Made by a program: the position numbers and the translations under genes | Assembly (NCBI RefSeq): GCF_003334405.1 | Contig: NZ_QOWM01000005.1 | DNA length: 64,000 nucleotides | Direction: 5' to 3' (one strand) | Source of the DNA: Escherichia coli | GTDB lineage: Bacteria > Pseudomonadota > Gammaproteobacteria > Enterobacterales > Enterobacteriaceae | Shown: piece after piece, positions 11,092 to 41,169 of the stretch | Layout of the letters: every line of letters starts with the position of its first letter | Position numbering within the stretch: position 1 is the stretch's first letter | Notes under the pieces: model-generated | Told to the model about the DNA's origin: nothing | The model's database searches: none | Seen by the model: only the letters and a program-made list of their open reading frames with translations

Positions 11092-13068
11092 TTATGCCGG
11101 TAACTCCGGGGGTAATGCTTCTTCCAGTCGGTTAACCATATTGCCGAGATGGGATGCATCATATTCCATGACGGGGCGTTGCCTGATGATACTGACCACC
11201 AGTGGTTTGATTAACATATTGGTCGCGGCCCGTTGTTGTATACCGGCGGCGAAAATGATCTCCAGAGCATTCTGATCGATAACACGGGCCAGATTCTCGT
11301 TCAGATTTTCAATCTCATGTCCGGTCAGCAGGAAACTGCCGGCAAGCCATGTCACCTGCTCCTGAATCATTGCCAGAATTTTGACGCGATCTTCTTCAAC
11401 CAGCGCTCCGGCAATTTTTCCTGATACAGCGGAGGCAATCATTCCCCCCAGAACACCGCCAACCACACGCCCTGTCAGTGCACCAAATGGTCCCAGTGGA
11501 CTGAACAGTATTCCGCCCGCCACTGACCCGACAGCACCACCTGCCACACCGGAAGATGCCACGGCAAGATTCCTGATGAACTGCGTACCGGAGATCCGTC
11601 CCCGCAACATTTTGATCATGTCAGGGCCGGTTGTGACAGCTACCAGTGCCAGAGATGTCACCAGCGTACCCTTCATCACTTTGTTCAGGGCACTGATATT
11701 TCCTGCACCGGTCCCCTTCTGAAGAGCCAGTCGAACAGTCGGGCTGGCAGTCGAAAAATCAATGTGCTTCAGCATACCCTGAACAACACTGAGCCGGTGG
11801 AGTTGCTGGGTTGTGACGTAGACAGCCAGTGTGCGGGTGAAGGTTTTTCCTGCCTGGACAGCAGCTGTCTGCAGGGCAGCATCGCGATCGCCGGTGCTGA
11901 GCCAGAAGACCGATGCCGTCAGGGCAAAACTGATCCCTCCGGCCGCCAGACTGACAACCGAACCCTCGGCAATATCATAAGTGACCGATTCGATGGTCCC
12001 GAACCGGGTGATATTACGGGCCTGAGTATAAGTCAGATGAGCCATACACGCGGCTTCCGTTATTCTGCCGGATTCGTATAACGCCCGGTAACCACCGTAA
12101 GCATCGGCCTGAAGCACACCGCTGTAACCGGCCAGGTGATTTTGTGGATGGATACCTTTCCGGTCCGGACTGTACGCGAACCAGACCGCCGGGGGCATCT
12201 GTGAACCGGCGTTACGGTCATCACGGACGTAGACCCACAGCCGGGCTGTCCGGGTTTTACCGCTGCCCGGCTCCTGGACCGGGACGGGGATATCATCAGC
12301 ATGGACTTTACCGGGCATCAGCACATACTGGCGCAGGACGTCATACAGCGGCTCCAGCAGTTCAGCAACAGCACCTGTCCAGCGCCCCAGTGTGGCACGG
12401 CTCAGCTCCACTCCCTGACGACGGTATATTTCTGACTGGCGGTATAACGGCAGATGGTCTGCATATTTCCCGGTGACAACATGGGCCAGAAGCCCCGCTC
12501 CGGCATAACTGCGTGCAATGGGTTTTGAAGGTACTGGTGCCTGCACGATATGGTCGCACCGGCAACAGGCCTGTTTCGGACGTTGTGTTTCGATAACCTT
12601 AAAGGCGCTGCTGATAAGCTCCAGTTGCTCTGACACATCACATCCCAGAGAACTGAGTTCACCACCACAGGCAGGACAGCATTCCTCTTCCGGCCGGATA
12701 ACCCGGGTTTCACGGGGAAGTGAGGCCGGTAACGGTTTACGGGCTGAAGACTGGCGCAGGGCGGATGGCAGTACCGGGTCATATTGCTCACCCAGCGTTT
12801 CCGCCATTTCTTCCTGAAGTGCGCTGATTCGCTCCTGTGCTTCCTGTATCTGCCGTTCGGTTTTTGCACGAAGTTTTTCTGAGCTTTTACCGAACTGCAT
12901 ACGTTGCAGTTTCGCAACCAGCGCCTTCAGCCGGTTGATTTCGGAAGCATAAGCCGCCACCCGCTGTGAGAGCAGGCGGTTGTATTCAGCCATCTGGCGG
13001 ATGGTGTCCTGTTGCGTCTGCAACAGTGCCCGCAGGCGGGCGTTCTCATGAGCAAGTGAGGTGTCCAT
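11092..13068 (-). pseudogene. Chimeric ORF: IS66-family TnpC (N-terminal ~340 aa) fused in frame to a glycine-rich C-terminal fragment of an unrelated protein
   Basis: N-terminal part has IS66 transposase hallmarks ([37 protein letters not shown]); after ...EAACMAHL the sequence diverges from the second TnpC copy at 14392-15777. Confidence 0.6.
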
Positions 13069-13087: not shown

Positions 13088-13435
13088 TTATATGCGGATT
13101 CCAGCGCGTTCCGTTCGTTTCGGGTGCTTCCAGTTGATACCTTCAAGAAGCATGGATAACTGAGCCGGAGTAAGGTGCACCTTGCCGTCACGGGTGACTG
13201 GCCAGACGAAGCGGCCCCGCTCCAGGCGTTTGGTGAAGAGGCACAGTCCGTCACTGTCAGCCCACAACACTTTTATCTGGTCACCCCGGCGTCCGCGGAA
13301 GATGAACAGGTGTCCGGAGAACGGGTCATCCTTCAGGACGTTCTGAACTTTTGATGCCAGGCCGTTAAAGCCATTTCGCATATCGGTGATACCTGCAACC
13401 AGCCAGATACGCGAACCTGCAGGGAGAGATATCAT
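13088..13435 (-). CDS. IS66-family accessory protein TnpB (Orf2)
   Basis: 115-aa ORF MISLPAGSRIWLVAGITDMRNGFNGLASKVQ...; paralogous to the plus-strand copy at 13995-14342. Confidence 0.8.
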   Translation of the reverse strand: MISLPAGSRIWLVAGITDMRNGFNGLASKVQNVLKDDPFSGHLFIFRGRRGDQIKVLWADSDGLCLFTKRLERGRFVWPVTRDGKVHLTPAQLSMLLEGINWKHPKRTERAGIRI

Positions 13436-13994: not shown

Positions 13995-14342
13995 ATGATC
14001 CCGTTACCTTCCGGGACCAAAATTTGGCTGGTTGCCGGTATCACCGATATGAGAAATGGCTTCAACGGCCTGGCTGCGAAAGTACAAACGGCGCTGAAAG
14101 ACGATCCCATGTCCGGCCATGTTTTCATTTTCCGGGGCCGCAGCGGCAGTCAGGTTAAACTGCTGTGGTCCACCGGTGACGGACTGTGCCTCCTGACCAA
14201 ACGGCTGGAGCGTGGGCGCTTCGCCTGGCCGTCAGCCCGTGATGGCAAAGTGTTCCTTACGCAGGCGCAGCTGGCGATGCTGCTGGAAGGTATCGACTGG
14301 CGACAGCCCAAGCGGCTGCTGACCTCCCTGACCATGCTGTAA
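13995..14342 (+). CDS. IS66-family accessory protein TnpB (Orf2), second copy
   Basis: 115-aa ORF MIPLPSGTKIWLVAGITDMRNGFNGLAAKVQ... Confidence 0.8.
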   Translation: MIPLPSGTKIWLVAGITDMRNGFNGLAAKVQTALKDDPMSGHVFIFRGRSGSQVKLLWSTGDGLCLLTKRLERGRFAWPSARDGKVFLTQAQLAMLLEGIDWRQPKRLLTSLTML

Positions 14343-14391: not shown

Positions 14392-15777
14392 ATGAACGAC
14401 ATCTCTTCTGACGACATCTTCCTGCTAAAACAGCGCCTGGCCGAACAGGAAGCGCTGATCCACGCCCTGCAGGAAAAGCTGAGCAACCGGGAGCGCGAAA
14501 TAGACCATCTGCAGGCGCAGCTGGATAAACTCCGCCGGATGAACTTCGGCAGTCGTTCCGAAAAAGTCTCCCGCCGTATCGCACAAATGGAAGCCGATCT
14601 GAACCGGCTTCAGAAAGAGAGCGATACGCTGACTGGTAGGGTGTATGACCCGGCAGTACAGCGTCCGTTGCGTCAGACCCGCACCCGTAAGCCGTTCCCT
14701 GAATCACTACCCCGTGACGAAAAGCGACTGTTGCCTGCGGCGCCGTGCTGCCCGAACTGCGGCGGTTCACTGAGCTATCTGGGCGAGGATACCGCCGAAC
14801 AGCTGGAGTTGATGCGTAGCGCATTCCGGGTTATCCGGACGGTACGGGAAAAACATGCCTGTACTCAGTGCGATGCCATCGTGCAGGCACCTGCACCTTC
14901 GCGGCCCATCGAGCGGGGTATCGCCGGACCGGGGCTGCTGGCCCGCGTGCTGACCTCGAAGTATGCAGAGCACACCCCGCTGTATTGCCAGTCAGAAATA
15001 TACGGCCGGCAAGGTGTGGAGCTGAGCCGTTCACTGCTGTCAGGCTGGGTGGATGCATGCTGCCGGCTGCTGTCTCCGCTGGAAGAGGCGCTTCATGGCT
15101 ATGTCATGACTGACGGCAAACTCCATGCCGATGATACCCCGGTCCAGGTACTGCTGCCGGGTAATAAGAAGACGAGGACCGGGCGGTTGTGGGCGTATGT
15201 TCGTGATGACCGCAATGCCGGGTCAGCGTTGGCACCTGCAGTGTGGTTCGCTTACAGCCCGGACAGAAAAGGCATCCATCCGCAGACTCATCTTGCTTGC
15301 TTCAGCGGTGTGCTGCAAGCGGATGCGTACGCCGGGTTCAACGAGCTGTATCGCAATGGTGGGATAACGGAAGCTGCCTGCTGGGCTCATGCCCGCCGAA
15401 AGATCCACGATGTGCACGTCCGCATCCCGTCAGCACTGACGGAAGAAGCCCTGGAGCAGATCGGTCAGTTGTACGCCATAGAGGCGGATATAAGGGGAAT
15501 GCCGGCAGAGCAGCGGCTTGCTGAACGTCAGCGAAAAACGAAACCGCTGTTGAAATCCCTGGAAAGCTGGTTGCGTGAAAAGATGAAGACCCTGTTCTTC
15601 GGCTCTGGCCATGGTGGTGAGCGGGGAGCGCTACTGTACAGCCTGATCGGGACGTGCAAACTGAATGACGTGGATCCAGAAAGCTACCTTCGCCATGTGC
15701 CTGGCGTCATAGCAGACTGGCCGGTCAACCGGGTCAGCGAACTGCTTCCGTGGCGCATAGCACTGCCAGCTGAATAA
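14392..15777 (+). CDS. IS66-family transposase TnpC, second copy (apparently full length)
   Basis: 461-aa ORF with MNFGSRSEKV, CCPNCGGSL, HADDTPVQVL, LWAYVRDDR, EAACWAHARRK motifs. Confidence 0.8.
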   Translation: MNDISSDDIFLLKQRLAEQEALIHALQEKLSNREREIDHLQAQLDKLRRMNFGSRSEKVSRRIAQMEADLNRLQKESDTLTGRVYDPAVQRPLRQTRTRKPFPESLPRDEKRLLPAAPCCPNCGGSLSYLGEDTAEQLELMRSAFRVIRTVREKHACTQCDAIVQAPAPSRPIERGIAGPGLLARVLTSKYAEHTPLYCQSEIYGRQGVELSRSLLSGWVDACCRLLSPLEEALHGYVMTDGKLHADDTPVQVLLPGNKKTRTGRLWAYVRDDRNAGSALAPAVWFAYSPDRKGIHPQTHLACFSGVLQADAYAGFNELYRNGGITEAACWAHARRKIHDVHVRIPSALTEEALEQIGQLYAIEADIRGMPAEQRLAERQRKTKPLLKSLESWLREKMKTLFFGSGHGGERGALLYSLIGTCKLNDVDPESYLRHVPGVIADWPVNRVSELLPWRIALPAE

Positions 15778-16015
15778 CACATCCCCGTCAATACGGCCCT
15801 CGCTGTACGCTTACTTTTGTTCGGACTGCTTATGGCCTTTTTCCACTGGTGTAGCAGGAAAGTTAACCGGCTGCCACCATGAGATGACGTGTAAACCGTG
15901 CAGGCATGTTTTCACGTGGTGACGCTTTCATTGGGGGTCTACGCCGGAACCCCAATATTGTTCACATACATGAATTTGAAAAACTAAGCGATACTGCTGT
16001 CCGTACCTTATAAAC

Positions 16016-17389
16016 TTATTTCAACGCTTCCGGCAGCGTCACAATCCACAGTTCACTGTCAGACTCCGGTTTCTCCAGTGGCTTCACTCTGAGGGTCGTT
16101 TCAACCTGCTTGTCGTCAAGCGTCAGCTTTCCTTCCGCGTTCACCCGATAATCCTTGAATGTCTTGCCCTCGACCGGATGTTGCATCGCCACCTTCACGC
16201 CAAAGTCGTTATCGTTCGCCACCGCCAGCGTTTTGCTGTCGATCAGCGCCAACCCTTCAGCCTTCTCCTGCTGCCAGCCCAAGGAGCGCAGATCAACAAC
16301 CTGCGTTTTCTGCGCAAGGGTAATGCCGCGCTGTGACAGGGTTTTCTCATCATCAAACTCCGGATACTCACCCGGCTTGTCGAAGCCTGACAGGTCGCTC
16401 GCCTTATTGAGATCGACCTCGTAAATCAGGTTACGCATTCTGTTGTTTTTATCTCTTCCCTGTTCGATCAGCAGGATGTGCTGGTTATCGAGCGCCACGA
16501 TGTCTCCGATTTTAGCGTCGCTGTTTTTGCTGTAGGCCGCGCTGTCGATAGGATAACCGTACATCGCGGTTTTTCCGCTTGCCGGATCGAAGCTCACCAG
16601 ACGCGTAAACAGCGCCTTTTTCTTGCTCTTAGCGTCGATATCCAGCGTACTTTGCACGGCGACAATAATACGCCCGTCCGGCATACGGGTGAGGCCTTCA
16701 AAGCCGCGGTTCGCCTGACGCCATTTGAGGATATTTGGCAAACCGCCCGCAATCGCTTTTTCCCCTTCCGCCGCCTGCGGACCGTGGATTGCCAGGATTT
16801 TCCCTTTACTGTCGATGTTAATCAGGAACGGGCCATACTCATCGCACAGCCAGTAACCTCCTTTACCATCCGGAGTGATCCCTTCCGTATCCAGCCCGCG
16901 ATTATCCCCCTTCAGTCTATGTAACGTGTCGCTGAAGGCCACTTCATTGGTGGAGCCAATCACGTCGCTTGCCAGCGGCAGACCGTTGATCGCGCCTTTA
17001 TCGTCATGCAGAGGACGAGGATCGATGGCCTCCGCTTTGCCGTTTTGTACACGAATCGTCATCAGCAGCGGCGCGAAATCTGGCGTAACGAAAATTTTAG
17101 TTTCGTTTTTCCCCTCTTTCGGTGAATCCGCGTTCGGACCGCGATCGGTAATGGTTGCGAATGTCAGGGCATCGCCCTGTTTACCGGTGAACAGCAGGCC
17201 AGAACCTATCCCAACCGGAAGGCCGTTCGGGAATGCACTGGCAAATGCGCCGGCGTAGTTCACGTGCGTGCCTTCTGGAAAACTGACGACATAGCGCTCA
17301 GCCGTAGGTTGTGCCGCCAGGGCAGAGAAAGAGAGCGTACAACCGATTAGCACGGGAATAATTTTTCTTTTCATATTGTTAGCATCCAT
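16016..17389 (-). CDS. Secreted hypothetical protein, possibly phytase-like/esterase-like beta-propeller
   Basis: 457-aa ORF with signal peptide MKRKIIPVLIGCTLSFSALAA; repetitive GxxG/D-rich blades; domain assignment from memory only. The true start may be the internal ATG at 17374. Confidence 0.45.
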   Translation of the reverse strand: MDANNMKRKIIPVLIGCTLSFSALAAQPTAERYVVSFPEGTHVNYAGAFASAFPNGLPVGIGSGLLFTGKQGDALTFATITDRGPNADSPKEGKNETKIFVTPDFAPLLMTIRVQNGKAEAIDPRPLHDDKGAINGLPLASDVIGSTNEVAFSDTLHRLKGDNRGLDTEGITPDGKGGYWLCDEYGPFLINIDSKGKILAIHGPQAAEGEKAIAGGLPNILKWRQANRGFEGLTRMPDGRIIVAVQSTLDIDAKSKKKALFTRLVSFDPASGKTAMYGYPIDSAAYSKNSDAKIGDIVALDNQHILLIEQGRDKNNRMRNLIYEVDLNKASDLSGFDKPGEYPEFDDEKTLSQRGITLAQKTQVVDLRSLGWQQEKAEGLALIDSKTLAVANDNDFGVKVAMQHPVEGKTFKDYRVNAEGKLTLDDKQVETTLRVKPLEKPESDSELWIVTLPEALK

Positions 17390-17654
17390 AAAGTGAAGAT
17401 CACACTACACCATAAAGAAGAAACGAGTCAGGAAAATGACATCGAATGGCAACATGCGCGGGCCTGAGGCCAAAGAAATGTAAAACACTGTTGTTATTTG
17501 TAACAACGGAAACATTTACGGAAATTATTTGTCTTTCTTCGTGATCAAAAATGCTGTGTCTTGTTGGATTGGAGTGATGAGGGCTGCGTTTAGGAAACGC
17601 CCTATATTGTACGGTTGCATTATCGCGGTAGGGGTAATGCACGTGTCAGTATGA

Positions 17655-17786
17655 TGAGCTGACCACACTCACGTGGGTGGACTGGTATAACAATCGACGA
17701 TTGCTGGAAAGGCAGGGCCATATCCCACCGGCAGAAGCAGAAAAAGCTTATTATGCTTCCATCGGAAACGATGATCTGGCAGCCTG
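17655..17786 (+). pseudogene. IS3-family transposase 3'-terminal remnant
   Basis: Reads ELTTLTWVDWYNNRRLLERQGHIPPAEAEKAYYASIGNDDLAA-stop, a typical IS3-family OrfB C-terminus with no upstream body. Confidence 0.5.
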
Positions 17787-18011
17787 AGTTCACAGATAAA
17801 ACACTCTCCAGGAAACCCGGGGCGGTTCACTTAGCCGCGTGTCCATTATTGCTGGATAAGATCAGTCAATAATAGCAGACCAACCACATCATGAGTCATT
17901 CTGACCGACACATGCCAGAAGCAGAGGCTCCATCCCATTTTATACCTACCTTATAACACTTAGAAAAACAACATGTTAAAAATGTCTATTGGAAACAATT
18001 TTATTTCCAAT

Positions 18012-18031
18012 TGTAATGATAACCATTCTCA
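18012..18031. promoter_or_regulatory. Putative Fur box upstream of fecI
   Basis: TAATGATAACCATTCTCAT resembles the Fur consensus GATAATGATAATCATTATC; fecIR is known to be Fur-repressed. Confidence 0.5.
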
Positions 18032-18074
18032 TATTAATATGACTACGTGATAATTAACTTTTGATGCACTCCGC

Positions 18075-18592
18075 ATGTCTGACCGCGCCACTACCACAGC
18101 TTCCTTAACGTTCGAGTCGCTTTATGGCACACATCACGGCTGGTTGAAAAGCTGGCTGACGCGCAAACTCCAGTCTGCTTTTGATGCAGATGACATTGCC
18201 CAGGACACTTTTTTGCGGGTAATGGTCAGCGAAACGCTCTCGACGATCCGCGATCCTCGCTCCTTCCTCTGCACTATCGCCAAACGCGTGATGGTGGACC
18301 TGTTTCGCCGAAACGCGCTGGAAAAAGCGTATCTGGAGATGCTGGCGCTTATGCCGGAGGGGGGAGCGTCTTCACCTGAGGAACGCGAAAGCCAACTCGA
18401 GACCCTACAACTCCTCGACAGCATGCTGGACGGGCTAAACGGCAAAACACGTGAAGCGTTTCTGCTTTCGCAACTGGATGGTCTGACATACAGCGAGATT
18501 GCGCACAAACTCGGTGTTTCCATCAGCTCCGTGAAAAAATACGTGGCGAAAGCCGTCGAGCACTGCCTGCTGTTCCGTCTGGAGTATGGGTT

Positions 18593-26837: not shown

Positions 26838-27935
26838 ATGGATTACAGCATGGCTAGTGTTGATGCAGATTACTGCTACTCGTTTCCGGCTATACGTGGC
26901 ATTCAGGCTGGTCGCCCTTTCTATATCGCCACATGCCCGATGCGTATCATCCCGAAAATATTCAGTTTTGATGAAAATGATGTGCCACCGGAATTACGCG
27001 CACAGCGCACGCTAAATAAATCGCGCATTCCCGAGATGGTACGTTATTTGTTGGAAAACCCTAAAGATTATGTGTTTTCAGCTCTGACGGCTTCCATTGC
27101 CGTAGACGTTCAATTTGATGAGTTTCCAGGTTCTAACAATCTGGGGACGTTGTGCGTACCAATGGATGCGCAAATTCTAATCAATGATGGACAACATCGC
27201 CGTAAAGCGATTGAAGACGCTTTAGACGCTCGTCCGGAGCTGGGCCAGGATAATATCCCGGTGTTGTTCTTTGTCGATGAAGGCTTAAAGCGTAGCCAGC
27301 AGATGTTCGCCGATCTGAATAAATACGCCATTCGCCCCAGCCCATCGCTGGCGTCGCTATACGATCATCGCGATGCCTGTTCGAATCTGGCGCGTTATCT
27401 GGCAATGTCAGTAGAGCCGTTTGTTGGGATGACGGAACTGGAAAAATCTGGCATTAGCCAGAGGTCGAATAAGCTATTTACGTTGAGCAGCATCAAGCAG
27501 GCTACCCGCGCATTGTTGGGCAAAGATCCCAAAGAGGATAACTTTGAGGAATGCACCCACATTGCTACCCAATATTGGCAGGCTATTTTTAGTGTAATGC
27601 CTGATTGGCAATTAGCGGCTAAAAAGGAAGTTTCACCGGTTCAATTGCGACAAGATTATGTTCACGCTCATGGCATTGGATTGCAGGCACTTGGGCAACT
27701 AGGATATACCCTGCTGACGGATTATCCTGAGCAATGGCCGGAGAAAATCGCTGCACTCAAAACATTTAACTGGCGTAGAAACAATCCGGACCTCATCAAG
27801 CGAGCGATGCAGCATGGGAAGTTGAGTAAAACCAGTACCGCGATCCAGTTAACCTGCAATGCGCTAAAAACCGCACTCTCAATTCCCCTCACTCCTGAAG
27901 AACAGGAGCTTGAAGCTCAAATGGTTGTCTCATGA
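26838..27935 (+). CDS. dndB: DNA phosphorothioation regulator DndB (DGQHR domain)
   Basis: 365-aa ORF containing the DGQHR motif (INDGQHRRKAI); first gene of a dndBCDE-ordered cluster. Confidence 0.85.
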   Translation: MDYSMASVDADYCYSFPAIRGIQAGRPFYIATCPMRIIPKIFSFDENDVPPELRAQRTLNKSRIPEMVRYLLENPKDYVFSALTASIAVDVQFDEFPGSNNLGTLCVPMDAQILINDGQHRRKAIEDALDARPELGQDNIPVLFFVDEGLKRSQQMFADLNKYAIRPSPSLASLYDHRDACSNLARYLAMSVEPFVGMTELEKSGISQRSNKLFTLSSIKQATRALLGKDPKEDNFEECTHIATQYWQAIFSVMPDWQLAAKKEVSPVQLRQDYVHAHGIGLQALGQLGYTLLTDYPEQWPEKIAALKTFNWRRNNPDLIKRAMQHGKLSKTSTAIQLTCNALKTALSIPLTPEEQELEAQMVVS

Positions 27936-29554
27936 GTAAATTAGTTCAGGCCTATGATTTGGCCGAATACGAAGATTTTATTAATCAGGAACAGTTCGCC
28001 GGACGTCCTCTGGCCGAATATGTTGCTGAGGTTCAACGAATTTATTGTGCGGATAAACGTCCGTGGGTGATTGGCTACAGCGGTGGGAAAGATTCTTCCG
28101 CTGTGATCACGCTGGTGTATCTGGCCTTGCTCGGCCTGCCCCCGGAAATGCGCAGCAAAGATATTTTTGTGGTGTCGTCCGATACGCTGGTCGAAACACC
28201 GGTAGTCGTGGATCTGATTAAGAAAACGATGTTGCAGATTGAGGCGGGAGCGAAGCGTAACGGCTTGCCGATCACTCAACACGCGGTAACGCCTAAAACG
28301 AATGAAACCTTCTGGGTCAATTTGCTGGGGAAAGGTTATCCGGCTCCAACTCGTAGTTTCCGTTGGTGCACTGAGCGCATGAAAATCAACCCGGTGAGTG
28401 ACTTTATTAAAGATAAGGTCAGCCAGTTTGATGAAGTCATCGTCGTACTTGGTTCGCGCAGTAGTGAAAGTGCTTCTCGTGCGCAGGTGATCGCAAAGCA
28501 CAAGATTGATGGATCACGCCTTGCCCGGCATACCACGCTGGCAAATGCATTCATCTATACCCCCATTGATACCTGGGATGTAGAAGATGTCTGGAAGCTG
28601 CTGCGGGGCGCGTTCCGCTATGCCCCTGAAGATATCGACGAGTGGGAAAGCCCGTGGGGTGGAAACAACCGTCCACTGTGGACGTTGTATATGGATTCTT
28701 CCGCACAGGGTGAATGTCCTCTGGTAATTGATGATAGTACCCCTTCCTGCGGCAACTCGCGTTTTGGCTGTTGGACCTGTACCGTTGTCACTAAAGATAA
28801 GGCGATGGAAAGCCTGATCAAAAACGGTGAAGAATGGATGTCTCCGTTGCTGAAATATCGTGATCTGCTGGCATTTACCACCGATCCGGTGAATAAAGAC
28901 ACGTTTCGAAACTATAAGCGCCGTACTGGTAAGGTGAGCTATCAGTACGCTAAAGAAAGTGATGAGCCGGGGGCTGAGCGTAAGCATGTTCCAGGTCCTT
29001 ACTGGCTAAAATACCGTCAGCAATGGCTCAAAGAATTGCTGGAGATAGAGCGCGATTTGAATGCTCAAGGCCATACCATTACGTTAATTACCAAACCAGA
29101 GCTGCATGCGATTCGTCAGGAGTGGTTGAAAGATCCTAATGAACCAGACTGGTATGACACGCTGCCGGGTATTTACCGTGAAGTGTATCAACAGGATTTA
29201 GACTGGGTGGTGGACGATCAGTCGCGCTTTGATGCCAGCGATGCAGATCTGTTGGTGCAGATAGCGCAGGGATTTGACGTTGTGCCTGAAATGGTGATGA
29301 AACTCATCGAGCTGGAAGTTTCAATGGAAGGCTTAAGCCGTCGTCAGGGCATTTTTGACAAACTTGGCACGATTTTAAAGCAGGACTGGGGCACTCTCGA
29401 AGAAATTGAACAACAACAGGTCACTCTGCAAAAACGAGTTGAACGAGATATTCATCAGGAAGAACTTACAAAGCTGGAAACTGAACTTCAGGTTTTACAG
29501 CGCAGAATTGTTGATGCCAGTGAATCCTCGTTACTGATTGGGGAGGAGAAATAA
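27932..29554 (+). CDS. dndC: DNA phosphorothioation protein DndC (PAPS reductase-like PP-loop ATP pyrophosphatase)
   Basis: 540-aa ORF with PP-loop SGGKDS (IGYSGGKDSSAV) and conserved Cys cluster; overlaps the dndB stop. Confidence 0.85.
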   Translation: MSKLVQAYDLAEYEDFINQEQFAGRPLAEYVAEVQRIYCADKRPWVIGYSGGKDSSAVITLVYLALLGLPPEMRSKDIFVVSSDTLVETPVVVDLIKKTMLQIEAGAKRNGLPITQHAVTPKTNETFWVNLLGKGYPAPTRSFRWCTERMKINPVSDFIKDKVSQFDEVIVVLGSRSSESASRAQVIAKHKIDGSRLARHTTLANAFIYTPIDTWDVEDVWKLLRGAFRYAPEDIDEWESPWGGNNRPLWTLYMDSSAQGECPLVIDDSTPSCGNSRFGCWTCTVVTKDKAMESLIKNGEEWMSPLLKYRDLLAFTTDPVNKDTFRNYKRRTGKVSYQYAKESDEPGAERKHVPGPYWLKYRQQWLKELLEIERDLNAQGHTITLITKPELHAIRQEWLKDPNEPDWYDTLPGIYREVYQQDLDWVVDDQSRFDASDADLLVQIAQGFDVVPEMVMKLIELEVSMEGLSRRQGIFDKLGTILKQDWGTLEEIEQQQVTLQKRVERDIHQEELTKLETELQVLQRRIVDASESSLLIGEEK

Positions 29555-29555
29555 C

Positions 29556-31556
29556 GTGCTCATTAAACAGCTGGTATTACATAATTTTCGGGTATTTAAC
29601 GGTACACATACCATTGATCTGGCACCCAGAAAGCGTCCGCACGATTTGAATCCACGACCTATTGTGCTGTTTGGTGGTTTAAACGGCGCAGGGAAAACGT
29701 CTATCCTGTCGGCGATCCGCATAGCGTTGTATGGACGACTGGCGTTTGGGCTAGCGACTCAACAGCAAGAGTATATCGAACAACTCAGTGCATTGATTCA
29801 TAACGGCGCGTACTATATTGAGCAGCCGGAAGAAGCATCTGTAGAACTGACGTTTACCTATAATAAAGGCGGTCATGAGGCCGAATTTACCGTTACGCGA
29901 ACCTGGAAAAAGGGGAAGAGGGACCGCCTTTCTCTGCAACAGGATGGGCAGCCACTCAGTGAGCTGGATTACGATCAGTGCCAGGGATTTCTAAATGAGT
30001 TAATTCCGCATGGCATTGCTGATTTGTTCTTTTTCGATGGCGAGAAAATTGCAGAACTTGCTGAGGACGAATCCGGTAATATTTTACGTACTGCCGTACG
30101 ACGCTTATTGGGGCTGGATCTCATCTCTAAACTGCGTAACGATTTAATGATTTTTGTTAAGCGTCAGCAATCCAGCCAGCTAGCAAGTTCTCAGCAACAA
30201 CAGATTGCAGAGCTTGAAAAACAGAGTAAAGAATTAGCCTGCCAGACAGAAGCACTGCTGGAAAGCGCCGATTTTGCCAAATCGCGGATTGAGTTTCTAT
30301 CTAAAGATATAACCCATTATGAAGGCTTGCTAAATGCTCAGGGGGGCGCTTTTGCCCAGACTAAAGCGCAGGAAAAACAGAAAGTCGAAACGCTGCTAAA
30401 AGATAAAGAACATCTGGAAAAAGCACTGAGACAAGAATGCGATGGCTCGCTACCTTATGCGCTTGCGCCCACTATTTTGTCTCATTTGCTGCAACAAATT
30501 GCTGATGAAACGCAAATTAAACAGGCAAAAAGCTTTGAAAAAGAGCTGAGCCAGTTTTTAACGCAACTCAGAAATGATATTGCATTTCGTTCTGCGGGGA
30601 CTGGCAAAATAGCAGCTGAAGCGATTACCGATAATCTAAAAGATTATATGGCAACGAAACCAAAAGGTGATTTGCTCTTTGATATCTCTGAGCGTGAAGC
30701 AGGTATGCTTCAACAGTCTATTGAGATAGATAGTAAAAGAGCATGGCAGCGTTTCGAGCTTTATCGCACACAGTTATCTGAGATTGAACAACAGTTAGAA
30801 CAAGCGGCTGCTAATATTGCCCGCGCTCCTGAAGATGAGCAGCTGATGGATCTCTTTGAAAAATTACGTGACCTGGATAGGCAGCGCGAAGCCCAATTGC
30901 AGAAATATCGGTCATTGCTAGAAGATGCTAAACGTAAAAAACAGCAGCAACTGGATTGTGTTCGTCAGATTCAAAAAGCGCATGACGCCGCTCGTTATCA
31001 GCACAGTTATAGCAGTGCGTTTAAGAATGCTCAGGAAACGATAAATTTACTCGATCGCTACAGCGATGTATTAACCCAGGCTCGGGTAAAAACGCTGTCG
31101 ACAAACTTCGAGCTTGCTTACCGTAAGTTGGCTCGCAAAGAGGATTTACAACTTAGTGCGCATATCAACCCTCAAACGTTTGATGTTGAATTAATTGATG
31201 AGAATGGCTCAGTAATTAACCGTAAGTTACTTTCTGCTGGTGAAAAACAGATTTATGCAATTGCTATTCTTGAGGCGCTGGCGAAAACCTCTGGCCGTGA
31301 TTTACCAGTGATCATTGATACACCATTGGGTCGTCTGGACTCTCAACATCGAGATAAATTGATTAATCACTACTTCCCTGAAGCCAGTCATCAGGTTGTG
31401 TTGCTTTCTACCGATACTGAAGTAGATGAACGTTATTTTGTTGATCAGTTGCGTGATGATATCTCTCATGCTTATGAGATTGTGTTTAATGCACATACTA
31501 AGTCATCAACGCTGAAGCCTGGTTATTTCTGGGAATTAACTAAGGAGGCTATCTGA
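29556..31556 (+). CDS. dndD: DNA phosphorothioation SMC-like ATPase DndD
   Basis: Walker A GGLNGAGKTS, long central coiled-coil, C-terminal signature/Walker B region; likely start GTG 29556 after GGAGGAG, whereas the ORF track uses TTG 29538. Confidence 0.85.
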   Translation: MLIKQLVLHNFRVFNGTHTIDLAPRKRPHDLNPRPIVLFGGLNGAGKTSILSAIRIALYGRLAFGLATQQQEYIEQLSALIHNGAYYIEQPEEASVELTFTYNKGGHEAEFTVTRTWKKGKRDRLSLQQDGQPLSELDYDQCQGFLNELIPHGIADLFFFDGEKIAELAEDESGNILRTAVRRLLGLDLISKLRNDLMIFVKRQQSSQLASSQQQQIAELEKQSKELACQTEALLESADFAKSRIEFLSKDITHYEGLLNAQGGAFAQTKAQEKQKVETLLKDKEHLEKALRQECDGSLPYALAPTILSHLLQQIADETQIKQAKSFEKELSQFLTQLRNDIAFRSAGTGKIAAEAITDNLKDYMATKPKGDLLFDISEREAGMLQQSIEIDSKRAWQRFELYRTQLSEIEQQLEQAAANIARAPEDEQLMDLFEKLRDLDRQREAQLQKYRSLLEDAKRKKQQQLDCVRQIQKAHDAARYQHSYSSAFKNAQETINLLDRYSDVLTQARVKTLSTNFELAYRKLARKEDLQLSAHINPQTFDVELIDENGSVINRKLLSAGEKQIYAIAILEALAKTSGRDLPVIIDTPLGRLDSQHRDKLINHYFPEASHQVVLLSTDTEVDERYFVDQLRDDISHAYEIVFNAHTKSSTLKPGYFWELTKEAI

Positions 31557-31909
31557 TGCTCCCGAATCGAATGGCGCTTAGCCGTCAGACTGAAGATCAG
31601 CTTAAAAAGCTTAAAGGGTATACTGGGATTACACCCAATATTGCTGCCCGGCTAGCATTTTTCCGCTCGGTGGAGAGTGAGTTTCGCTATTCACCTGAAC
31701 GAGATAGTAAGAAGCTGGATGGTACGCTGGTGCTGGATAAAATTACGTGGCTGGGGGAGACACTACAAGCTACAGAATTGGTGCTGAAGATGCTTTATCC
31801 ACAATTAGAGCAAAAGGCGTTGATTAAGGCATGGGCTGCTCATGTTGAGGATGGGATTGCGGCATTGAGAAATCATAAAAGTTTAATTAGCTTATTAAAT
31901 GCTATATAA
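31556..31909 (+). CDS. dndE: DNA phosphorothioation protein DndE
   Basis: 117-aa ORF overlapping the dndD stop; size and position fit DndE. Confidence 0.8.
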   Translation: MLPNRMALSRQTEDQLKKLKGYTGITPNIAARLAFFRSVESEFRYSPERDSKKLDGTLVLDKITWLGETLQATELVLKMLYPQLEQKALIKAWAAHVEDGIAALRNHKSLISLLNAI

Positions 31910-31950
31910 AACATTTAAATTTATTGGTATGACCTTTTGTTTTCAACCTA

Positions 31951-31986
31951 AAACCACCTCCTAGGGAGGTGGTGATTGAGTTTTAT
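31951..31986. terminator. Bidirectional stem-loop terminator between convergent dndE and the ATPase gene
   Basis: Perfect palindrome CCACCTCC-CTAGG-GAGGTGG at 31954-31973 with an A-rich tract upstream and TTTT downstream. Confidence 0.5.
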
Positions 31987-31991
31987 AATTG

Positions 31992-33155
31992 TCATATTGC
32001 TAATTTTAAAATTAATTCACCGGCATCAGGCGAATGTATCAGCGTAGCTAAATGTGAACCACACTTGCAAGAATTGAAGTTGCTGTCCACTTTAAATTTA
32101 AAGCGTCCGTTAGCAACCTCAGCATATCGGTAATTTTCATTCTCACTTTTCTCTTTTAGTTCGATCCTGAATTCATTATTGATATTTTCTAAGCAATATA
32201 AGAATTTTTCTATCTCATATTCGTTAGTTTCAATCCAAAGAGCAATTGCAAAACCCTTTAAGGTAGATAAATGCTTATCCGATAAGATTTTAGACAGCTC
32301 AATGAAAAAATCATGATGATCACAAGTCATAGCATCGAACTCGCCCTCAAGATAATCGGCATCCACGCCTAATTTTGCAGCATAAGCCTGAATGTTATTT
32401 TTTATACACTCTATAACTTCTGCTTCTGGTGGTAAATTATTTTCTGAGGGTAGGAAAACATTTTTAATACAATCTGAATTTATTCCTCTGCTTTTAACTT
32501 GATCGGCATCGTAAACAGATACTATGTTCAGGCCAGAGCTATCTTTATAATGCTCAGATACTTTTTGTATATTAGATTCACCTTGTAGATTATGTAAGTA
32601 ACATGTAGAGTAAAGATGTGTGTTTTTTATTTTTAAGATATATTCAAGTACAAGTTTTGCAAAGTCATCCTCTATCAGGAAAATATTTTTCCTTTCAGGA
32701 GCTAAACCCAGTGCATTGAAATATCTATAATTATATCCACAATTTGATATGGTATATTTTTTGCCTTTTTTAGCTAAGACTAATACTGAGTTTAAGCCTT
32801 GAGGGCTGAGTATGTGTTCAGAGTGAGTAGCCATCAAAACATTTAATTTTTTAGTATCGATTGTGTAGGCTAAAAAATCCATGAAATTTTTCTGGCTTAC
32901 CGGGCAAATAAAACTCTCTGGCTCTTCAATGAAGAGGATTGAATTTTTTTCCGTATAAATAAGTTTCCAGATTGCTATAAGTAACTTATGTTCTCCTTGC
33001 CCCATACTCTCTGACGTATAAACTATATTACTGTTAACCTCTTTAACCTCAAAGTATGGGAAAGTTAAATCATCAATAATTCCTTCTACCTCATTAACTT
33101 TTACATACTCATATTTCTTGCCTGTGATTTTCTGAACAAAAAAAAAGATTTTCAT
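31992..33155 (-). CDS. ABC/OLD-like ATPase, C-terminal part (Walker B, H-loop and TOPRIM-like region); separated from its N-terminal part by a frameshift
   Basis: 387-aa ORF with LFIEEPESF (Walker B-like), MATHSEHIL, and a TOPRIM-like IFLIEDDF ... YDAD; begins with ATG directly abutting the T9 tract. Confidence 0.6.
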   Translation of the reverse strand: MKIFFFVQKITGKKYEYVKVNEVEGIIDDLTFPYFEVKEVNSNIVYTSESMGQGEHKLLIAIWKLIYTEKNSILFIEEPESFICPVSQKNFMDFLAYTIDTKKLNVLMATHSEHILSPQGLNSVLVLAKKGKKYTISNCGYNYRYFNALGLAPERKNIFLIEDDFAKLVLEYILKIKNTHLYSTCYLHNLQGESNIQKVSEHYKDSSGLNIVSVYDADQVKSRGINSDCIKNVFLPSENNLPPEAEVIECIKNNIQAYAAKLGVDADYLEGEFDAMTCDHHDFFIELSKILSDKHLSTLKGFAIALWIETNEYEIEKFLYCLENINNEFRIELKEKSENENYRYAEVANGRFKFKVDSNFNSCKCGSHLATLIHSPDAGELILKLAI

Positions 33156-33603
33156 TTAGCAAATGATAAGAATTTGATGTATTGAACCATCCATTTTTGT
33201 TTGGCGATGTGTTTATTTCGTTTATGATTTTTAATGCCATTGATGAAGCATCAAAATATTCAACATTTCTTAGTCCATCACCCAAAGACGAAGTGAAAGT
33301 TTGTTTCTCTCCATTAATTATTATATCAATGGAGATATTATCAATATCAGAAGAGCTAAAAATCCCAACATTACATATATCTTTCGACAGTATACCATAG
33401 ATAAGTTTCAATAACGACGTTTTACCAATGCCATTTCTTCCACATATAGAGGTTAAAGCTGAGTTTATCGTAATATCAGCATCTTCAAAGAGTGGTACAT
33501 TCTTAATGGATAAACTACATATTTTAATATTAAACTTTTTCCTGTTTGCCACATGATTCCAATAATCAGCTAATTTTGCCATTTTAATTGTTTCTATTGA
33601 CAT
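33109..33603 (-). CDS. ABC/OLD-like ATPase, N-terminal part (Walker A)
   Basis: 164-aa ORF with Walker A GRNGIGKTS; it reads through the T9 tract and terminates 12 codons later. Removing one T joins it in frame to the 387-aa ORF. Confidence 0.6.
   Translation of the reverse strand: MSIETIKMAKLADYWNHVANRKKFNIKICSLSIKNVPLFEDADITINSALTSICGRNGIGKTSLLKLIYGILSKDICNVGIFSSSDIDNISIDIIINGEKQTFTSSLGDGLRNVEYFDASSMALKIINEINTSPNKNGWFNTSNSYHLLNENLFFCSENHRQEI
33138..33146 (-). repeat. T9 homopolymer (A9 on the plus strand) at the junction of the two ATPase ORFs
   Basis: Nine consecutive A at 33138-33146 on the plus strand; on the coding strand ATC TTT TTT TTT GTT. Confidence 0.8.
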
Positions 33604-34799
33604 GTAGTTACCCCCGCTAAAACAGAATCTGCATAATTGTTGACGACGCTTATCAGATTCTTTTCATTTTCATGATAAAGTGCTCTATGCGCAGTTTTTA
33701 GATTATTTTTTTTCATCGTATTGAACACATCTGCTTTACTGGGGTCACTCTTCAAGAAAAATAGAGATATTATAAAGTCTCTGATGAGTAAGGAAGTACC
33801 AGTCATTACTCTTGATACAGCCCTAAAATTAAATTCTTCCAATAACTCCTTTACTTCATCTTTATTTTCACAATAAAACAATCCATCCAACACTCCCTCT
33901 TCTCTGAAAACGAATCTACCACTTTCAAAGCGGTAAAAGAAATCACTAAGGCTATCGTCTAAATTATAATTCGATTTTAAAATGGTTGAAAAAAAATAAA
34001 GCCATGAAGTTAAAGTGGCTTTTGTTATATGAACCTTACTTTCTTCACTATCAATCTTTTTCTTTGCCTTACTTAATATTAAAATGGATTTTTTTACTAG
34101 TTCTATGATTGAATTATCAAAAGGCTCATCTTCACGAGCCCTGTCGTTTAATTGCTTTTCTGTATAAGAAGCAATCAATGAATCCTTCTCAAGCATGTAG
34201 CAAAGTTTAATGAAAAGATCATGGTATGCCATCCTTTGATTACTAAAGCCTAGAAAGTGCTTGTCAAGCCCACAATCCGACATATAATCTACGAGAGATT
34301 TTATCTGGTTTCTTAAATCGCCAACATAAGCATTTCTCTTTTCTGCTGAAGTTAATTTAAGAGATTCATTCAATCTGTTGAATAGTTCACCGGGCTCTCC
34401 CTGATTGTATTCAACAATCTCAAATACTCGAATGGCATACCGTTCAAATCTGTTTTTTATTCTTTGAGGTAATTTATCAAAAGTTAATCCATCTAATTCT
34501 TTGATATCATCATCAATAGGTTCAATTAATCCATTTATTTTGAATTTATTATACATGAAATCTCTTATGGCACTTAATCGTTGCTGTCCATCGAGAACTT
34601 CTTGAATATAGGAATCTTCATTTAAAATAACATGGACAGGTGGAACCTGCCACCCTCTTAGAATAGTATCGATTAAAAGTTTTTTCTTCGGAAGTTGCCA
34701 GACTTCCGCCCTCTGGAAATCGGGTTGGAGATCTAGACTTCCTTCATGAATCCTAGAAAATATAGTCCTCAAATCTGGATCTGTAGTATTTATTTTCAT
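33594..34799 (-). CDS. DUF262-like (ParB/Srx-fold, DGQQR motif) protein
   Basis: 401-aa ORF with LQPDFQRAEVWQ ... VLDGQQRLSAI in the N-terminal 100 aa; its ATG overlaps the dptH stop (ATGA at 34796-34799). Confidence 0.65.
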   Translation of the reverse strand: MKINTTDPDLRTIFSRIHEGSLDLQPDFQRAEVWQLPKKKLLIDTILRGWQVPPVHVILNEDSYIQEVLDGQQRLSAIRDFMYNKFKINGLIEPIDDDIKELDGLTFDKLPQRIKNRFERYAIRVFEIVEYNQGEPGELFNRLNESLKLTSAEKRNAYVGDLRNQIKSLVDYMSDCGLDKHFLGFSNQRMAYHDLFIKLCYMLEKDSLIASYTEKQLNDRAREDEPFDNSIIELVKKSILILSKAKKKIDSEESKVHITKATLTSWLYFFSTILKSNYNLDDSLSDFFYRFESGRFVFREEGVLDGLFYCENKDEVKELLEEFNFRAVSRVMTGTSLLIRDFIISLFFLKSDPSKADVFNTMKKNNLKTAHRALYHENEKNLISVVNNYADSVLAGVTTCQ

Positions 34800-37700
34800 T
34801 TCATTAACTCCCAGAATGCTTTATCACGCATTTTCCTAACTTTTTTATTTCCATCTATATACAGGCTAAAATGCTTCTCAAGTTGTCGTATCTGGCCCAT
34901 TAAAGACTCCTGCTCACTTTTATCGTCAATGTTAAATACCGCCTTAATGTCCGAATTCCTAATCTCAGAAACTCGATGAATTACCCAAGTGAGAATATAA
35001 GAAGCATAATTATTCTCGCCTGTTTTAAAGTGAGTAATTTCTTGTGTTGATAGAATCGCCCCTACACCATATTCACGGCCTTCTTTAAGGATTTTACGCA
35101 AGCTGGCAAAATCCTGGCGCATAAAGTTATCGGCTTCATCAACCAGAATCATTTTGGTTAACTGGCGATAATCACCTCGCACCGTCGGTTTCCCACGCTT
35201 TTGCATCTGCGCATAAAAAAGATCCAGTGTCAGTGCAACTACCAGGTTTTGAATCTCTGATGGATAACCAGCGAGTTCGATAACTGTGACTCCATCAACC
35301 AGATCGTACAAACTGGTCATCTTCTCTGGATCCGTTTCAAAAATCTGGAAACCAGCCAGATTATAAAGTGCAGCATATAATGAATCTTCGTCGACCTTCT
35401 CTTGTGCCAGGTACTGCTGCCACACATCTTCAATAGTCGGTGCTACACGATTCCATGTTGATCGATCATGAGGCACTATTCCTGCTAAGTCATAGCACTC
35501 CATTATTAACGTAACCAGCTTCATGCGTTGTTTTACGCCAAGGTTATACGCTTTGCCCATCGTTTCAGCGAATGCCATGGCCGTATGCCTCGGTAACATG
35601 GGCATATCACCAAATAACGATAACGGATTGTAAGGTAACAACGATAGCTGATACCTCTTAGCTCCCGTAGCTTCAAGAAACGCATCATCCACATAGTCGG
35701 ATTTATAGTCGAAGATCAACAAGCCAATCGGTTTACCGTCAACGTTGTAGGACTGATTGCGCATCAGTTGCGTAACCAGCGATTTAGTAAACTGGGTTTT
35801 CCCGGTGCCCATTGTTCCAATAATGCCGGTATTAGTATTCATGAACTTAGCGGTGTTGGTTGGTTCCCAGTACAATGGATTCTGACGCACAGCATCATGA
35901 CCAAACAAGATCTGTAATGGTGTATTGCGGACATTACTGGGGGTTAGTGCCGATGCTTCAGGTTGTGGAAGCTCCAGCGCAGAAATGGGCGGCGGCTCAG
36001 TTGTTGTTGCTACCTGTACTGGGTGTGAAGAATTGACATCACACTCTGGTTTGAGCAGATATTTTTCCGGCACCCGATAGCGTTCAGCTAGTGGAGGTTG
36101 ATCACCTTGTGCTGCAATTAACGATGGAAGCAATGAATAGGGGATTTCGATCTGTAGAATATTCTCTGCCGTTTCTTTATAAGAGAGATCAAAACAGGTT
36201 CCGCTGTCTACATGAGCTACCACAAAGCCTTCTGCATAATCAGCAAGCTCACCTAACTGATAGTCGCCAGTGAGCCACCATTCACGTCGTTCCAGCAGAG
36301 GGGATAGCTTGTCGTTATCCAGTACACCATACAGACGCAACTTCTCTACCTGCATTAATACTTGGCGGATAAAAAGTGCCCGGTATAGTTGTGATGCTAG
36401 AGTTTTCGGCCCAAGAATATCTTGCTGTAAATAGCGTTTTAGCTCGCGGGCCTGCTGCCCCGCATGGTTGTAATCGGGGCGAGCTCCTGTTTTTACTTCA
36501 AGTGGTAACAGATACAGGTTGTTATCTTTGAAACCGACAAAGAGCACATCGTCAGAGATCGCTCCTTTCTGATAACCCTGTAAATGGCGCGATAAATCGC
36601 TTTCTTTCATTCTCAGCCCGACGTTGCCGGACACGCGGATCATCTCAGCTACTGACAGTGGAATCCAGCAAATATCTGACTGGAGCAGCATAGACTGTAC
36701 GAATTTGTATGCACCGATAATGCCGTGTTTTTCTTTGCGCTCCTTTTCATTTGAACGCAACATTTTTAACAGCCACTCACCGTTAAAGGCATTAAATTCA
36801 GCAAGTAGTTGCTGGCTATCAACGGTGGATTGTCCTGTTTGAAGGAGACGCAGGAACAACTCAACCTGTTTTGTGACAGTTACGGCGTCATAACCAGCAC
36901 AACTGGTGTACTGGTCAGAGTAATGAATTAGTACGACATCTTTTTGACTAGTAAAGAAATCGAGTGTGACCTTAGGGTCGATAATTGTGGTCCAGAGAGA
37001 GCTATCATAAGAGCGATTCAGCAGTTGCTTAAAGTTACCGCTCACAGCCAGACTAATTCCCTGACCGTGATACTGGCTGTTGCTCTGCCGTGCCGGTTGC
37101 CACAGACAGCCTAACAAGCGGGCGAGACGCAGGGCGCAAGACGATTCAGTATCGACATTACGCAGACCAAACGCGGTAAAGTAAGCATCGCCTTGTGTTT
37201 CAGCCCCTTCGCCTGCAATCAAGCCATGACATAAAACCCCGCTGGCAGCATCCTCAATGCGAATTTGGCGGCAATCAACCGGTGCGGTGTTGGTGAAAAA
37301 TGCGAGATGGGCGTAAGCCAGTTGATCGCTTTCCGGTGGCAGGATAAATTTGCTGAATGTTAAGCGACTGCGAAGCAGATCGATCAACATATCGGCTTCA
37401 GAACGCCACGCACCGCTGTTCAGACCAAGATCATTTTTAAGTTGTTCATAGCTGCCGCTTTCGGCAAAGCGGTCAAAGGCATTGGGTAGCAGACGTTCGT
37501 CATAGCAGTTTACGTGTATCGAAATTGCGTTATCTTTTTCCTGCTTAAAATAATCTACCAGTCCCAGGAATAGCTCTCTGGCTTCTCCCATATTAATAGC
37601 ATTAATAACCAGGGCATTATTTCCTGCACTCTGGAACAGCCGAGAATAGGCATCTGTAAATTCGTTTAGCTTGTCTTTCACCAGACGCTTAACATATTCG

Positions 37701-39880: not shown

Positions 39881-41165
39881 TCATTCTCTCCACATTTCCC
39901 ATGCGTTCATAAAACGCAACCAGCATTTGTGTAGACTGGTTATCCAGATAAAATCCGCGTTGCTCAAAACCACGTAGCAGCTCATGCAGACGGAGTTTTT
40001 TGTTTTTACCCACGGTAAGGTTAGTTAGTAGCAGTAGTCGATCCTGGTTCAGTACCAGCACTTTCCCCGCTCGGCCACGAACCTGAATGAAGTCAGTGCA
40101 AATCTGGCTTTCCAGCTCGTTGATGTATTTGCGATTTACCGCTGCTCGCTCGGTTTTCTTACCCTGAAACTGTTCAACGGCAACAGATAACAGCTGTTTA
40201 AAGGCATCTTCCAGGTTTGTAGCACGATCGCGTTCAGGAAGGTCTCGCTCCTCCTTACTAATGAACTTCTGTATATAATTATTGAGTTCATTTAGTACTC
40301 GATTCGATGTATCTGAATAACCTAAGCAATCTTGATATACCTGCCAAAGAGGGCGCTTTTCCTCACCTTTTACTTGTAATACCTCTAATGCAGAGAGTAC
40401 GGGGAATAATTTTTCACTTTGGCGGGCAAACCACTTATAGCCGAAGAGCTTTATTTTATCTCGTTCGGAGCTAGCTTTTTCAGTATCGAGGATAAAGAAC
40501 AATGATTTACTCTGCGGCTCGCCGTCTTGCCAGTTGTCCAGATTGAGCGCCAGTTGTGCGCACCAACTAAAGGCATACAAACGTAGAGTATTGGTCAGCT
40601 CCTGCAAAAGATATTGTGGGTGCTCTGCCAGAAACGCCAAATCAGACTGAAAACACGTTACCAGATAGGGTAAATAAGGTTGTTCTTTTGCAAATGGCCC
40701 CTCACCCAGTCGGATTAATTTTTTATTGAGCTTATTCAGCATCTCTTTTTCAATAAAATTCAACTTATCTTGTATCGGGTTATTAAGGCTAAAATCTCTC
40801 ATCAAATTGGCAAACAGTGTTCCAAGGCGTTTGTCGGCAGTCGAGCCTGCACTTATCTTTTCACCATCAAACTGAGCGTGGAACAGCAAGAACAGCGGGG
40901 AGACACGAAAAATATCCTGACTGGAAAAATACATCCGTTCCAGCACGGACAAGAACGCAGGTTCATCGATCAATATTTGCAGATGAGTTTTACAATCCTC
41001 GCGAAACTGCTCGAGACTGTATGTATCGATTTTATACTTCACGGCATAGCTCAGTACTAAACCTGTGACGATTTGCCAGTCAATATTGTTATTCTTATTA
41101 CGTATTGGAAGGTAGCTATCCAGCTGGTTATTACTAACTTTTAAATTTGTTGCAATGGGATACAT
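39840..41165 (-). CDS. dptG: Phosphorothioation-dependent restriction protein DptG/DndG
   Basis: 441-aa ORF between dptF and dptH with appropriate size and position. Confidence 0.7.
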   Translation of the reverse strand: MYPIATNLKVSNNQLDSYLPIRNKNNNIDWQIVTGLVLSYAVKYKIDTYSLEQFREDCKTHLQILIDEPAFLSVLERMYFSSQDIFRVSPLFLLFHAQFDGEKISAGSTADKRLGTLFANLMRDFSLNNPIQDKLNFIEKEMLNKLNKKLIRLGEGPFAKEQPYLPYLVTCFQSDLAFLAEHPQYLLQELTNTLRLYAFSWCAQLALNLDNWQDGEPQSKSLFFILDTEKASSERDKIKLFGYKWFARQSEKLFPVLSALEVLQVKGEEKRPLWQVYQDCLGYSDTSNRVLNELNNYIQKFISKEERDLPERDRATNLEDAFKQLLSVAVEQFQGKKTERAAVNRKYINELESQICTDFIQVRGRAGKVLVLNQDRLLLLTNLTVGKNKKLRLHELLRGFEQRGFYLDNQSTQMLVAFYERMGNVERMSDSGDAVYVRKTV

Positions 41166-41169
41166 GATG

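Follow-up and report, generated by a model that had tools for sequence, protein, structure and literature searches.

What does a gene for a predicted exported propeller do beside the ferric-citrate (fec) genes on an Escherichia coli genomic island, and does it belong with them? Such a gene lies in the window analysed here, i.e., the whole stretch of 64,000 nucleotides from contig NZ_QOWM01000005.1 (assembly GCF_003334405.1). An earlier note, made from the sequence alone, had described it as encoding a signal-peptide protein with blade-like segments, perhaps phytase-like or esterase-like, that may have been mobilised together with the fec operon. We found an ordinary, intact and already annotated accessory gene, of a kind of system that is already known. 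We propose, with a probability of about 0.55, that it encodes a PhoB-activated, Sec-exported and probably Ca2+-dependent periplasmic phosphoesterase with several candidate substrates. The PhoB dependence, the metal dependence and the phosphoesterase chemistry are all things that we infer; the analysis itself establishes the family, the fold, the export signal (on inspection), the occurrence of the gene, the limits of the captured DNA, purifying selection, and a Pho box conserved in both sequence and layout.

The gene, its product and its surroundings

16016..17374, minus strand: coding sequence of the phytase-like protein (RefSeq WP_000823243.1 in collinear genomes; conserved start codon; dN/dS about 0.09)
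17656..17787, plus strand: remnant of an IS3-family transposase between the gene and fecI, at the island junction (annotation of collinear genomes, mapped by offset)

The minus-strand reading frame at 16016-17389 of the window is real and encodes at most the 457 residues that the earlier note had attributed to it, as the list of open reading frames confirms. The product has probably 452 residues instead, because Enterobacter and Pluralibacter have CTG or AAG in place of the ATG at 17389, the start MK(R/I)K is universal among the orthologues compared, and the RefSeq protein annotated at the same position in collinear genomes (WP_000823243.1) has 452 residues and starts at the ATG at 17374.

The annotation of collinear genomes also agrees with the position given before, between IS66 elements and an IS3 remnant upstream of fecI. 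The gene is flanked on one side by tnpC of the IS66 family (14392-15777, plus strand) and on the other by the IS3 transposase remnant (about 17656-17787), a segment that matches IS3 copies on many plasmids. The start of fecI is at 18075, and the two genes are divergent. In collinear genomes, ykiE or a small hypothetical coding sequence is annotated between the IS3 remnant and fecI (region 17831-17923 of the window).

Other parts of the island were also inspected. Two IS66-family copies lie head to head, one with tnpB at 13088-13435 (minus strand), the other with tnpB at 13995-14342 and the above tnpC (plus strand). The 658-residue frame at 11092-13068 (minus strand) looks chimeric: its N-terminal 340 residues or so resemble IS66 TnpC and are followed, in frame, by an unrelated C-terminus, Gly/Ala-rich and membrane-like, which suggests a truncated IS66 copy fused to the remnant of another gene. 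Between fec and a P4-type integrase adjoining tRNA-Leu(CAA) (leuX), the frames at about 26838-42819, 43029-44297 and 44497-44581 have the size and order of the dndBCDE (DNA phosphorothioation) and dptH-type (restriction) genes of FDAARGOS_1077. Given these Dnd-like frames, the island would combine a defence system with iron uptake and the phytase-like gene.

Distribution and the link with fec

16014..17529, minus strand: DNA homologous to chromosomal loci of Enterobacter and Lelliottia (blastn of window 15500-18100 against the orthologous loci)

The gene is present in 2262 of the 5426 complete E. coli genomes (about 42%), nearly always with at least 99% identity, and occupies 2238 chromosomal and 66 plasmid places in them. 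It is nearly full-length in 2191 genomes and annotated as intact in every match listed. A query made of the gene and fecIR was covered over at least 80% of its length in 1778 genomes, i.e., the gene stands beside fecIR in 1778 of the 2191 nearly full-length carriers. The carriers include Nissle 1917, in which IS1, an IS3 remnant and the phytase-like gene (locus L001, 21877-23020) are found where K-12 has IS1F beside ykiE-fecI (locus L006, 22373-23240). In Shigella flexneri, orf34 of the SRL island is the same gene and adjoins the IS66 genes orf35-37 and fec (PMC6980539). Upstream of fecI, K-12 has ykiE, then IS1F, then yjhU, and lacks the gene; genomes of the K-12 type match only the fecIR half of the query. 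The arrangement is consistent with an IS1-mediated event in the lineage of K-12 by which the gene was lost or rearranged. Neither a well-characterised housekeeping family nor a K-12 orthologue at the same relative position was thus found, which is the outcome that the earlier note had set against its own reading.

Orthologues with 60-90% identity occur in Enterobacter, Lelliottia, Pluralibacter, Pantoea, Serratia, Yersinia, Buttiauxella, Pectobacterium and others (the scan of the genome collection for orthologues was run with a 14-sequence alignment). The nucleotide identity with Enterobacter and Lelliottia is 83-86% by blastn and is confined to the stretch between the stop codon and a point some 155 bp upstream of the start codon (about 17529). 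Relative to the orthologues of these two genera, dN/dS is 0.07-0.11 (about 0.09), i.e., the gene is under purifying selection. In Pantoea, Serratia, Enterobacter and Pluralibacter we found no conserved gene neighbours, the gene being monocistronic and its contexts varied, and fec genes are present in none of the 84 orthologous loci of other genera. The linkage with fec in E. coli is therefore best read as hitch-hiking mediated by insertion sequences. From the comparison of these sequences, the locus looks like a single gene, captured together with its promoter from a chromosome like that of Enterobacter and put beside fec by the activity of insertion sequences.

Plasmid copies were seen in several settings. 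On pCFSAN061772_01, the gene lies between two IS1 copies and fec is absent; these copies are in the same orientation on this IncHI1B/IncQ1 plasmid, which gives the segment (locus L007, 10611-15581) the appearance of a composite transposon. The plasmid matches of Pantoea agglomerans and P. vagans are mostly on a megaplasmid of about 0.5 Mb, and P. brenneri has a chromosome-like copy. A 3-kb contig of a metagenome-assembled genome labelled 'Ruminococcaceae' carries a copy that is 99% identical to the E. coli allele, promoter included, and is most likely mis-binned E. coli DNA.

Could the protein instead be an accessory of ferric-citrate uptake, e.g., by releasing periplasmic iron from its complexes with phytate or citrate, and be co-selected with fec? 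The adjacency to fecIR in 1778 of 2191 E. coli genomes and on the Shigella SRL island speaks for it, but we consider it highly improbable: the gene and fecI are divergent, with the IS3 remnant and often IS1 as well lying between the two, all 84 orthologous loci of other genera lack fec, and the orthologues examined stand alone in varied chromosomal contexts. Its conserved upstream motif is a predicted Pho box (see below) and neither a FecI nor a Fur site, the fec operon of K-12 works although the gene is absent there, and the plasmid copy exists without fec.

The earlier description as possible cargo mobilised with fec thus holds up, with a refinement. The gene is accessory (2262/5426 genomes), missing beside the K-12 fec operon and a neighbour of fecIR in 1778 genomes. 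Its link to fec is purely physical, as seen from the divergent genes, the intervening IS3 remnant, the 0/84 loci and the plasmid copy without fec; the first three, and a K-12 fec operon that lacks the gene, also speak against conserved linkage or co-transcription with fecIRABCDE.

A full-length member of a propeller family

16202..17212, minus strand: PF13449 Phytase-like beta-propeller domain, residues 60-396 of the 457-residue frame (Pfam match)

The possible phytase-like or esterase-like nature of the protein, offered before as a guess, turned out to match the database name of its family. The profile search gave PF13449 ("Phytase-like") as the sole Pfam domain, with an E-value of 7.5e-43, a score of 147.9 and a match to model positions 4-284 (281/284); Pfam names the family 'Phytase-like / esterase-like activity of phytase'. 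There was no other Pfam domain even at E<=10, PF02333 and PF05787 included, and NCBIfam has no family for the protein.

The blade-like segments of the earlier description were borne out by structure prediction, which that note had proposed as a check: the AlphaFold2 model, built from 82 diverse homologues, is an all-beta propeller with a pLDDT of 95.8 and a pTM of 0.92. As expected for a PF13449 propeller, conserved Asp/Glu motifs recur in successive blades. Invariant acidic residues open the first strand of these blades (D-T-E164-G-I, F-E226-G-L, G-D291-I and A-E373-G-L), and the family alignment contains further motifs (TDRGPN, CDE179YGP and NDNDFG).

Searches for better-known relatives returned little beyond the fold. 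Sequence searches of the PDB, with the protein and with the 82-sequence profile, found nothing beyond a generic similarity of blades (Pizza designs, Drp35 and YjiK). Foldseek gave only weak, generic propeller matches in the PDB (TM 0.23-0.37) and only unnamed "phytase-like domain" proteins in AFDB50 (TM 0.8-0.95). No biochemically characterised member of PF13449 was found in the PDB, among AFDB names or in the literature searched; a homologue from Campylobacter, which in 2001 was given as the best-matching characterised protein, was not traced. The name "phytase-like" of PF13449 is no evidence of phytase activity, and the word "phytase" in a product name should not be taken as such in annotation.

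We compared the family with phytases directly, using a Bacillus 3-phytase sequence that agrees with PDB entry 3AMR along its whole length, without a mismatch. The hhalign probability for the family profile was 19% against the Bacillus phytase sequence and 17% against a 27-sequence phytase profile. At these values, homology with true beta-propeller phytases is not demonstrable. The nearest structural neighbours are not phytase propellers. Nor does the protein have what marks PhoX alkaline phosphatases, i.e., a match to the PF05787 model and export by the Tat pathway, by which these enzymes typically leave the cytoplasm. As judged from sequence, the protein is neither a phytase of the Bacillus beta-propeller type nor a PhoX phosphatase.

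A genuine phytase, Ca2+-dependent and specific for metal-phytate like the Bacillus enzymes, which would give gut E. coli access to the phosphorus of dietary phytate, is unlikely in our view. It would account for the family name and would suit the predicted Pho box, which fits phosphorus scavenging. It would also fit a local hhalign alignment over two blades, of low probability, which pairs the invariant E164, E179 and E226 with E211, E227 and E260, themselves invariant in phytases, which we take to be the Ca2+-binding glutamates of the phytase cleavage site. The gene is furthermore carried by phytate-degrading strains of Pantoea brenneri (PMC12697123); one phytate-degrading strain of this species is without it.

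Export of the protein

17315..17374, minus strand: Sec-type signal peptide, residues 1-20 (MKRKIIPVLIGCTLSFSALA), predicted cleavage between ALA and AQP (inspection)

The signal peptide reported before holds up on inspection. The N-terminus has the n/h/c layout of such signals (MKRK, then IIPVLIGCTLSFS, then ALA before AQP, with a signal peptidase I site), and this layout and the small residues at -3 and -1 are kept in all of the roughly 80 orthologues read. In the AlphaFold2 model, residues 1-20 have low confidence and the fold begins at about residue 24. A lipoprotein signal (LIGC, residues 9-12) was considered and rejected: the Cys is too near the N-terminus and is not conserved, position 12 being S, Y, L or A in many orthologues. 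Inspection of the N-terminus revealed no twin-arginine motif. From the signal layout, the variable Cys12 and the missing twin-arginine motif, the protein is predicted to be a Sec-exported, soluble protein, and neither a lipoprotein nor a Tat substrate.

[quoted passage not shown]

17425..17442, minus strand: predicted Pho box ATGTCAT-TTTC-CTGACTC, 68 nt upstream of the ATG (positional orthology, layout)
17409..17414, minus strand: predicted -10 hexamer TATGGT, 10 bp downstream of the Pho box, with no -35 consensus (conserved spacing)

The alignment of the upstream regions shows one conserved block within otherwise diverged DNA. We scored the 84 orthologous upstream regions for the best match to two half-sites of the CTGTCAT type with a 4-bp spacer (maximum 14). 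On the coding strand, 74% of the regions score at least 12/14, against 0.33% of dinucleotide shuffles and 0% on the reverse strand, proportions whose independence is overstated by the shuffle statistics because the regions are phylogenetically related. In almost all orthologues, 61-80 nt separate the start of the predicted box (TGTCAT-N5-TGTCAT) from the ATG downstream of it, and the box is followed by 10 bp and then, at the same spacing, by a TAnnnT hexamer. In Franconibacter the predicted box is perfect (CTGTCAT-TAAT-CTGTCAC). On the same scale, the validated boxes of K-12 score 13 (phoA), 12 (phoB), 14 and 12 (pstS) and 12 (phoE).

The box of the island copy, at 11/14, is weaker than any other in the set, and taken by itself it does not reach significance (P = 0.06 per 300 bp). 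Among the 15 sites of the window that score at least 11, only the one at 17425-17442 has a correctly spaced -10, and it occupies the position of the stronger boxes in the orthologues. No sigma-70 consensus promoter was found in 15750-17750, as expected of an activator-dependent promoter. The conserved box suggests a new reading of the gene, i.e., that it is switched on by phosphate starvation. In E. coli this control by PhoB may be attenuated, since the island box is the weakest one (second half-site CTGACTC) and lacks significance of its own.

Sites for PhoP, CpxR and Fur were considered as regulators and rejected, as none is conserved in the orthologues. A perfect 7-bp inverted repeat (GTTGTTA-N4-TAACAAC) lies at 17490-17507, 48 bp upstream of the predicted Pho box; it is not conserved in Enterobacter and may be a chance occurrence or an operator specific to E. 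coli.

A weak box raises the question of whether the gene is a silent passenger in E. coli, recently acquired and for that reason alone still intact, its promoter decayed and its contribution to fitness nil. The score of 11/14 would fit this, as would the insertion-sequence debris around the gene and the truncated variants in the protein database, and the identity of at least 99% among almost all E. coli copies leaves selection within the species beyond judgement. We nevertheless regard a silent passenger as very unlikely, given that about 2190 complete genomes have the frame at full length, that it is intact in every match listed, that the -10 hexamer and its spacing from the box are preserved, and that the gene has been picked up separately in 66 plasmid places.

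Proposed function

Phosphorus limitation also appears in work on other phytase-like proteins. In Nodularia, the gene of a PF13449 protein ("atypical alkaline phosphatase") ranks with those that P limitation induces most strongly, and it adjoins a co-induced metallophosphoesterase (PMC9846622). A phytase-like exoprotein of Synechococcus WH8102, whose membership of PF13449 is not established, rises with the alkaline phosphatases (PMC4949707). For Enterobacterales, the literature search yielded neither a report of a PF13449 gene in the Pho regulon nor expression data for the gene; an RNA-seq study of phosphate limitation in A. baumannii likewise gave nothing on the family. Among 24 multi-domain relatives, only four have fusions to domains of the phosphoesterase type: two to a 5'-nucleotidase C-terminal domain, one to a metallophosphoesterase and one to a ParB-like nuclease.

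These data bear on whether the propeller has any role in phosphorus metabolism. It could be a hydrolase of another kind, such as a lactonase, or a binding protein, and the direct repeat would then be functionless or the site of another regulator of the OmpR/PhoB family. The closest solved folds do include non-phosphatases, namely a glutaminyl cyclase, YjiK, lactonases and NHL domains, there are weak profile matches to the Drp35 lactonase, SGL and SdiA-regulated families, and TorR boxes (CTGTTCATAT) resemble Pho half-sites. We find a role outside phosphorus metabolism improbable. The repeat agrees with TGTCAT, the half-site of PhoB, and lacks the additional T that tor boxes have, and its 11-bp periodicity, its orientation on the coding strand and the spacing from box to -10 are those of phoA, pstS and phoE. 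In addition, a distant member of the family is induced by P limitation, and the fusions are to phosphoesterase and nuclease domains, with none to lactonase-related partners.

The preferred reading, a PhoB-activated periplasmic phosphoesterase, would work as follows. The gene stands alone with its own promoter, in which the predicted Pho box replaces the -35 element, and phosphate starvation would lead phosphorylated PhoB to activate its transcription. The protein would be exported, its signal peptide cleaved after Ala20, and it would fold in the periplasm. There the invariant acidic residues E164, E179, E226, D291, E373 and D388/D390 would hold a metal, most likely Ca2+, and an organic phosphate ester would be hydrolysed, with the release of Pi for uptake. 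Phytate, nucleotides or nucleic-acid fragments, and phosphodiesters are the candidate substrates. The gene is a foreign one in E. coli and Shigella, placed beside the fec operon by insertion sequences on tRNA-associated islands; it travels with fec and yet would be regulated and used independently.

A broader claim, which we make tentatively and hold at somewhat below even odds, is that PF13449 represents an unrecognised class of PhoB-controlled, Sec-exported, Ca2+-dependent periplasmic phosphoesterases, to be set beside PhoA, PhoD, PhoX, PafA and Psip1. If this were true, about 42% of the complete E. coli genomes, with Nissle 1917 and the Shigella SRL strains among the carriers, would have a horizontally acquired enzyme of the Pho regulon that lies beyond the reach of work on K-12, with a substrate range unlike that of PhoA and AppA (e.g., nucleotides, nucleic-acid fragments, or metal-phytate at neutral pH). 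If the prediction of the Pho box holds, PF13449 gains a context in phosphate scavenging and an experimental handle, the Pho regulon of E. coli gains an accessory member, and fec islands bundle the acquisition of iron and phosphorus under independent regulation. 

Comparison with known systems

The promoters controlled by PhoB in K-12 (phoA, pstS, phoE and phoB) carry, as does the predicted box here, a pair of 7-bp direct repeats that are oriented with the coding strand and parted by an A/T-rich spacer of 4 bp, and they have no -35 element. Those of phoA, pstS (proximal box) and phoE share with the gene studied here the layout of a box, 10 bp and a -10 hexamer. The difference is in the score, 12-14/14 for the K-12 promoters against 11/14 for the predicted box of the island copy.

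The Bacillus beta-propeller phytases (PF02333; PDB 3AMR, 1H6L and 2POO) are likewise secreted all-beta propellers with conserved acidic residues, and three invariant Glu of each family are superposed by the local two-blade alignment, which has a low probability. PhoX (PF05787; a Ca/Fe beta-propeller) and Psip1 are Pho-regulated, exported and metal-dependent propeller phosphatases (PMC11098088). It is this concept, a Pho-regulated exported metal-dependent propeller phosphatase, that the phytase-like protein would share with them. The propellers of the C-terminal domain of the YjiK/SdiA-regulated family (3QQZ), of glutaminyl cyclases (3MBR and 3NOK) and of the human Ca2+-nucleotidase SCAN-1 (2H2N) show an identity of 11-16% with about half of the 452 residues alignable; their functions differ or are unassigned, and the matches show no homology at the level of the family. 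Within PF13449 itself, the protein is a full-length member that differs in nothing from the rest of the family.
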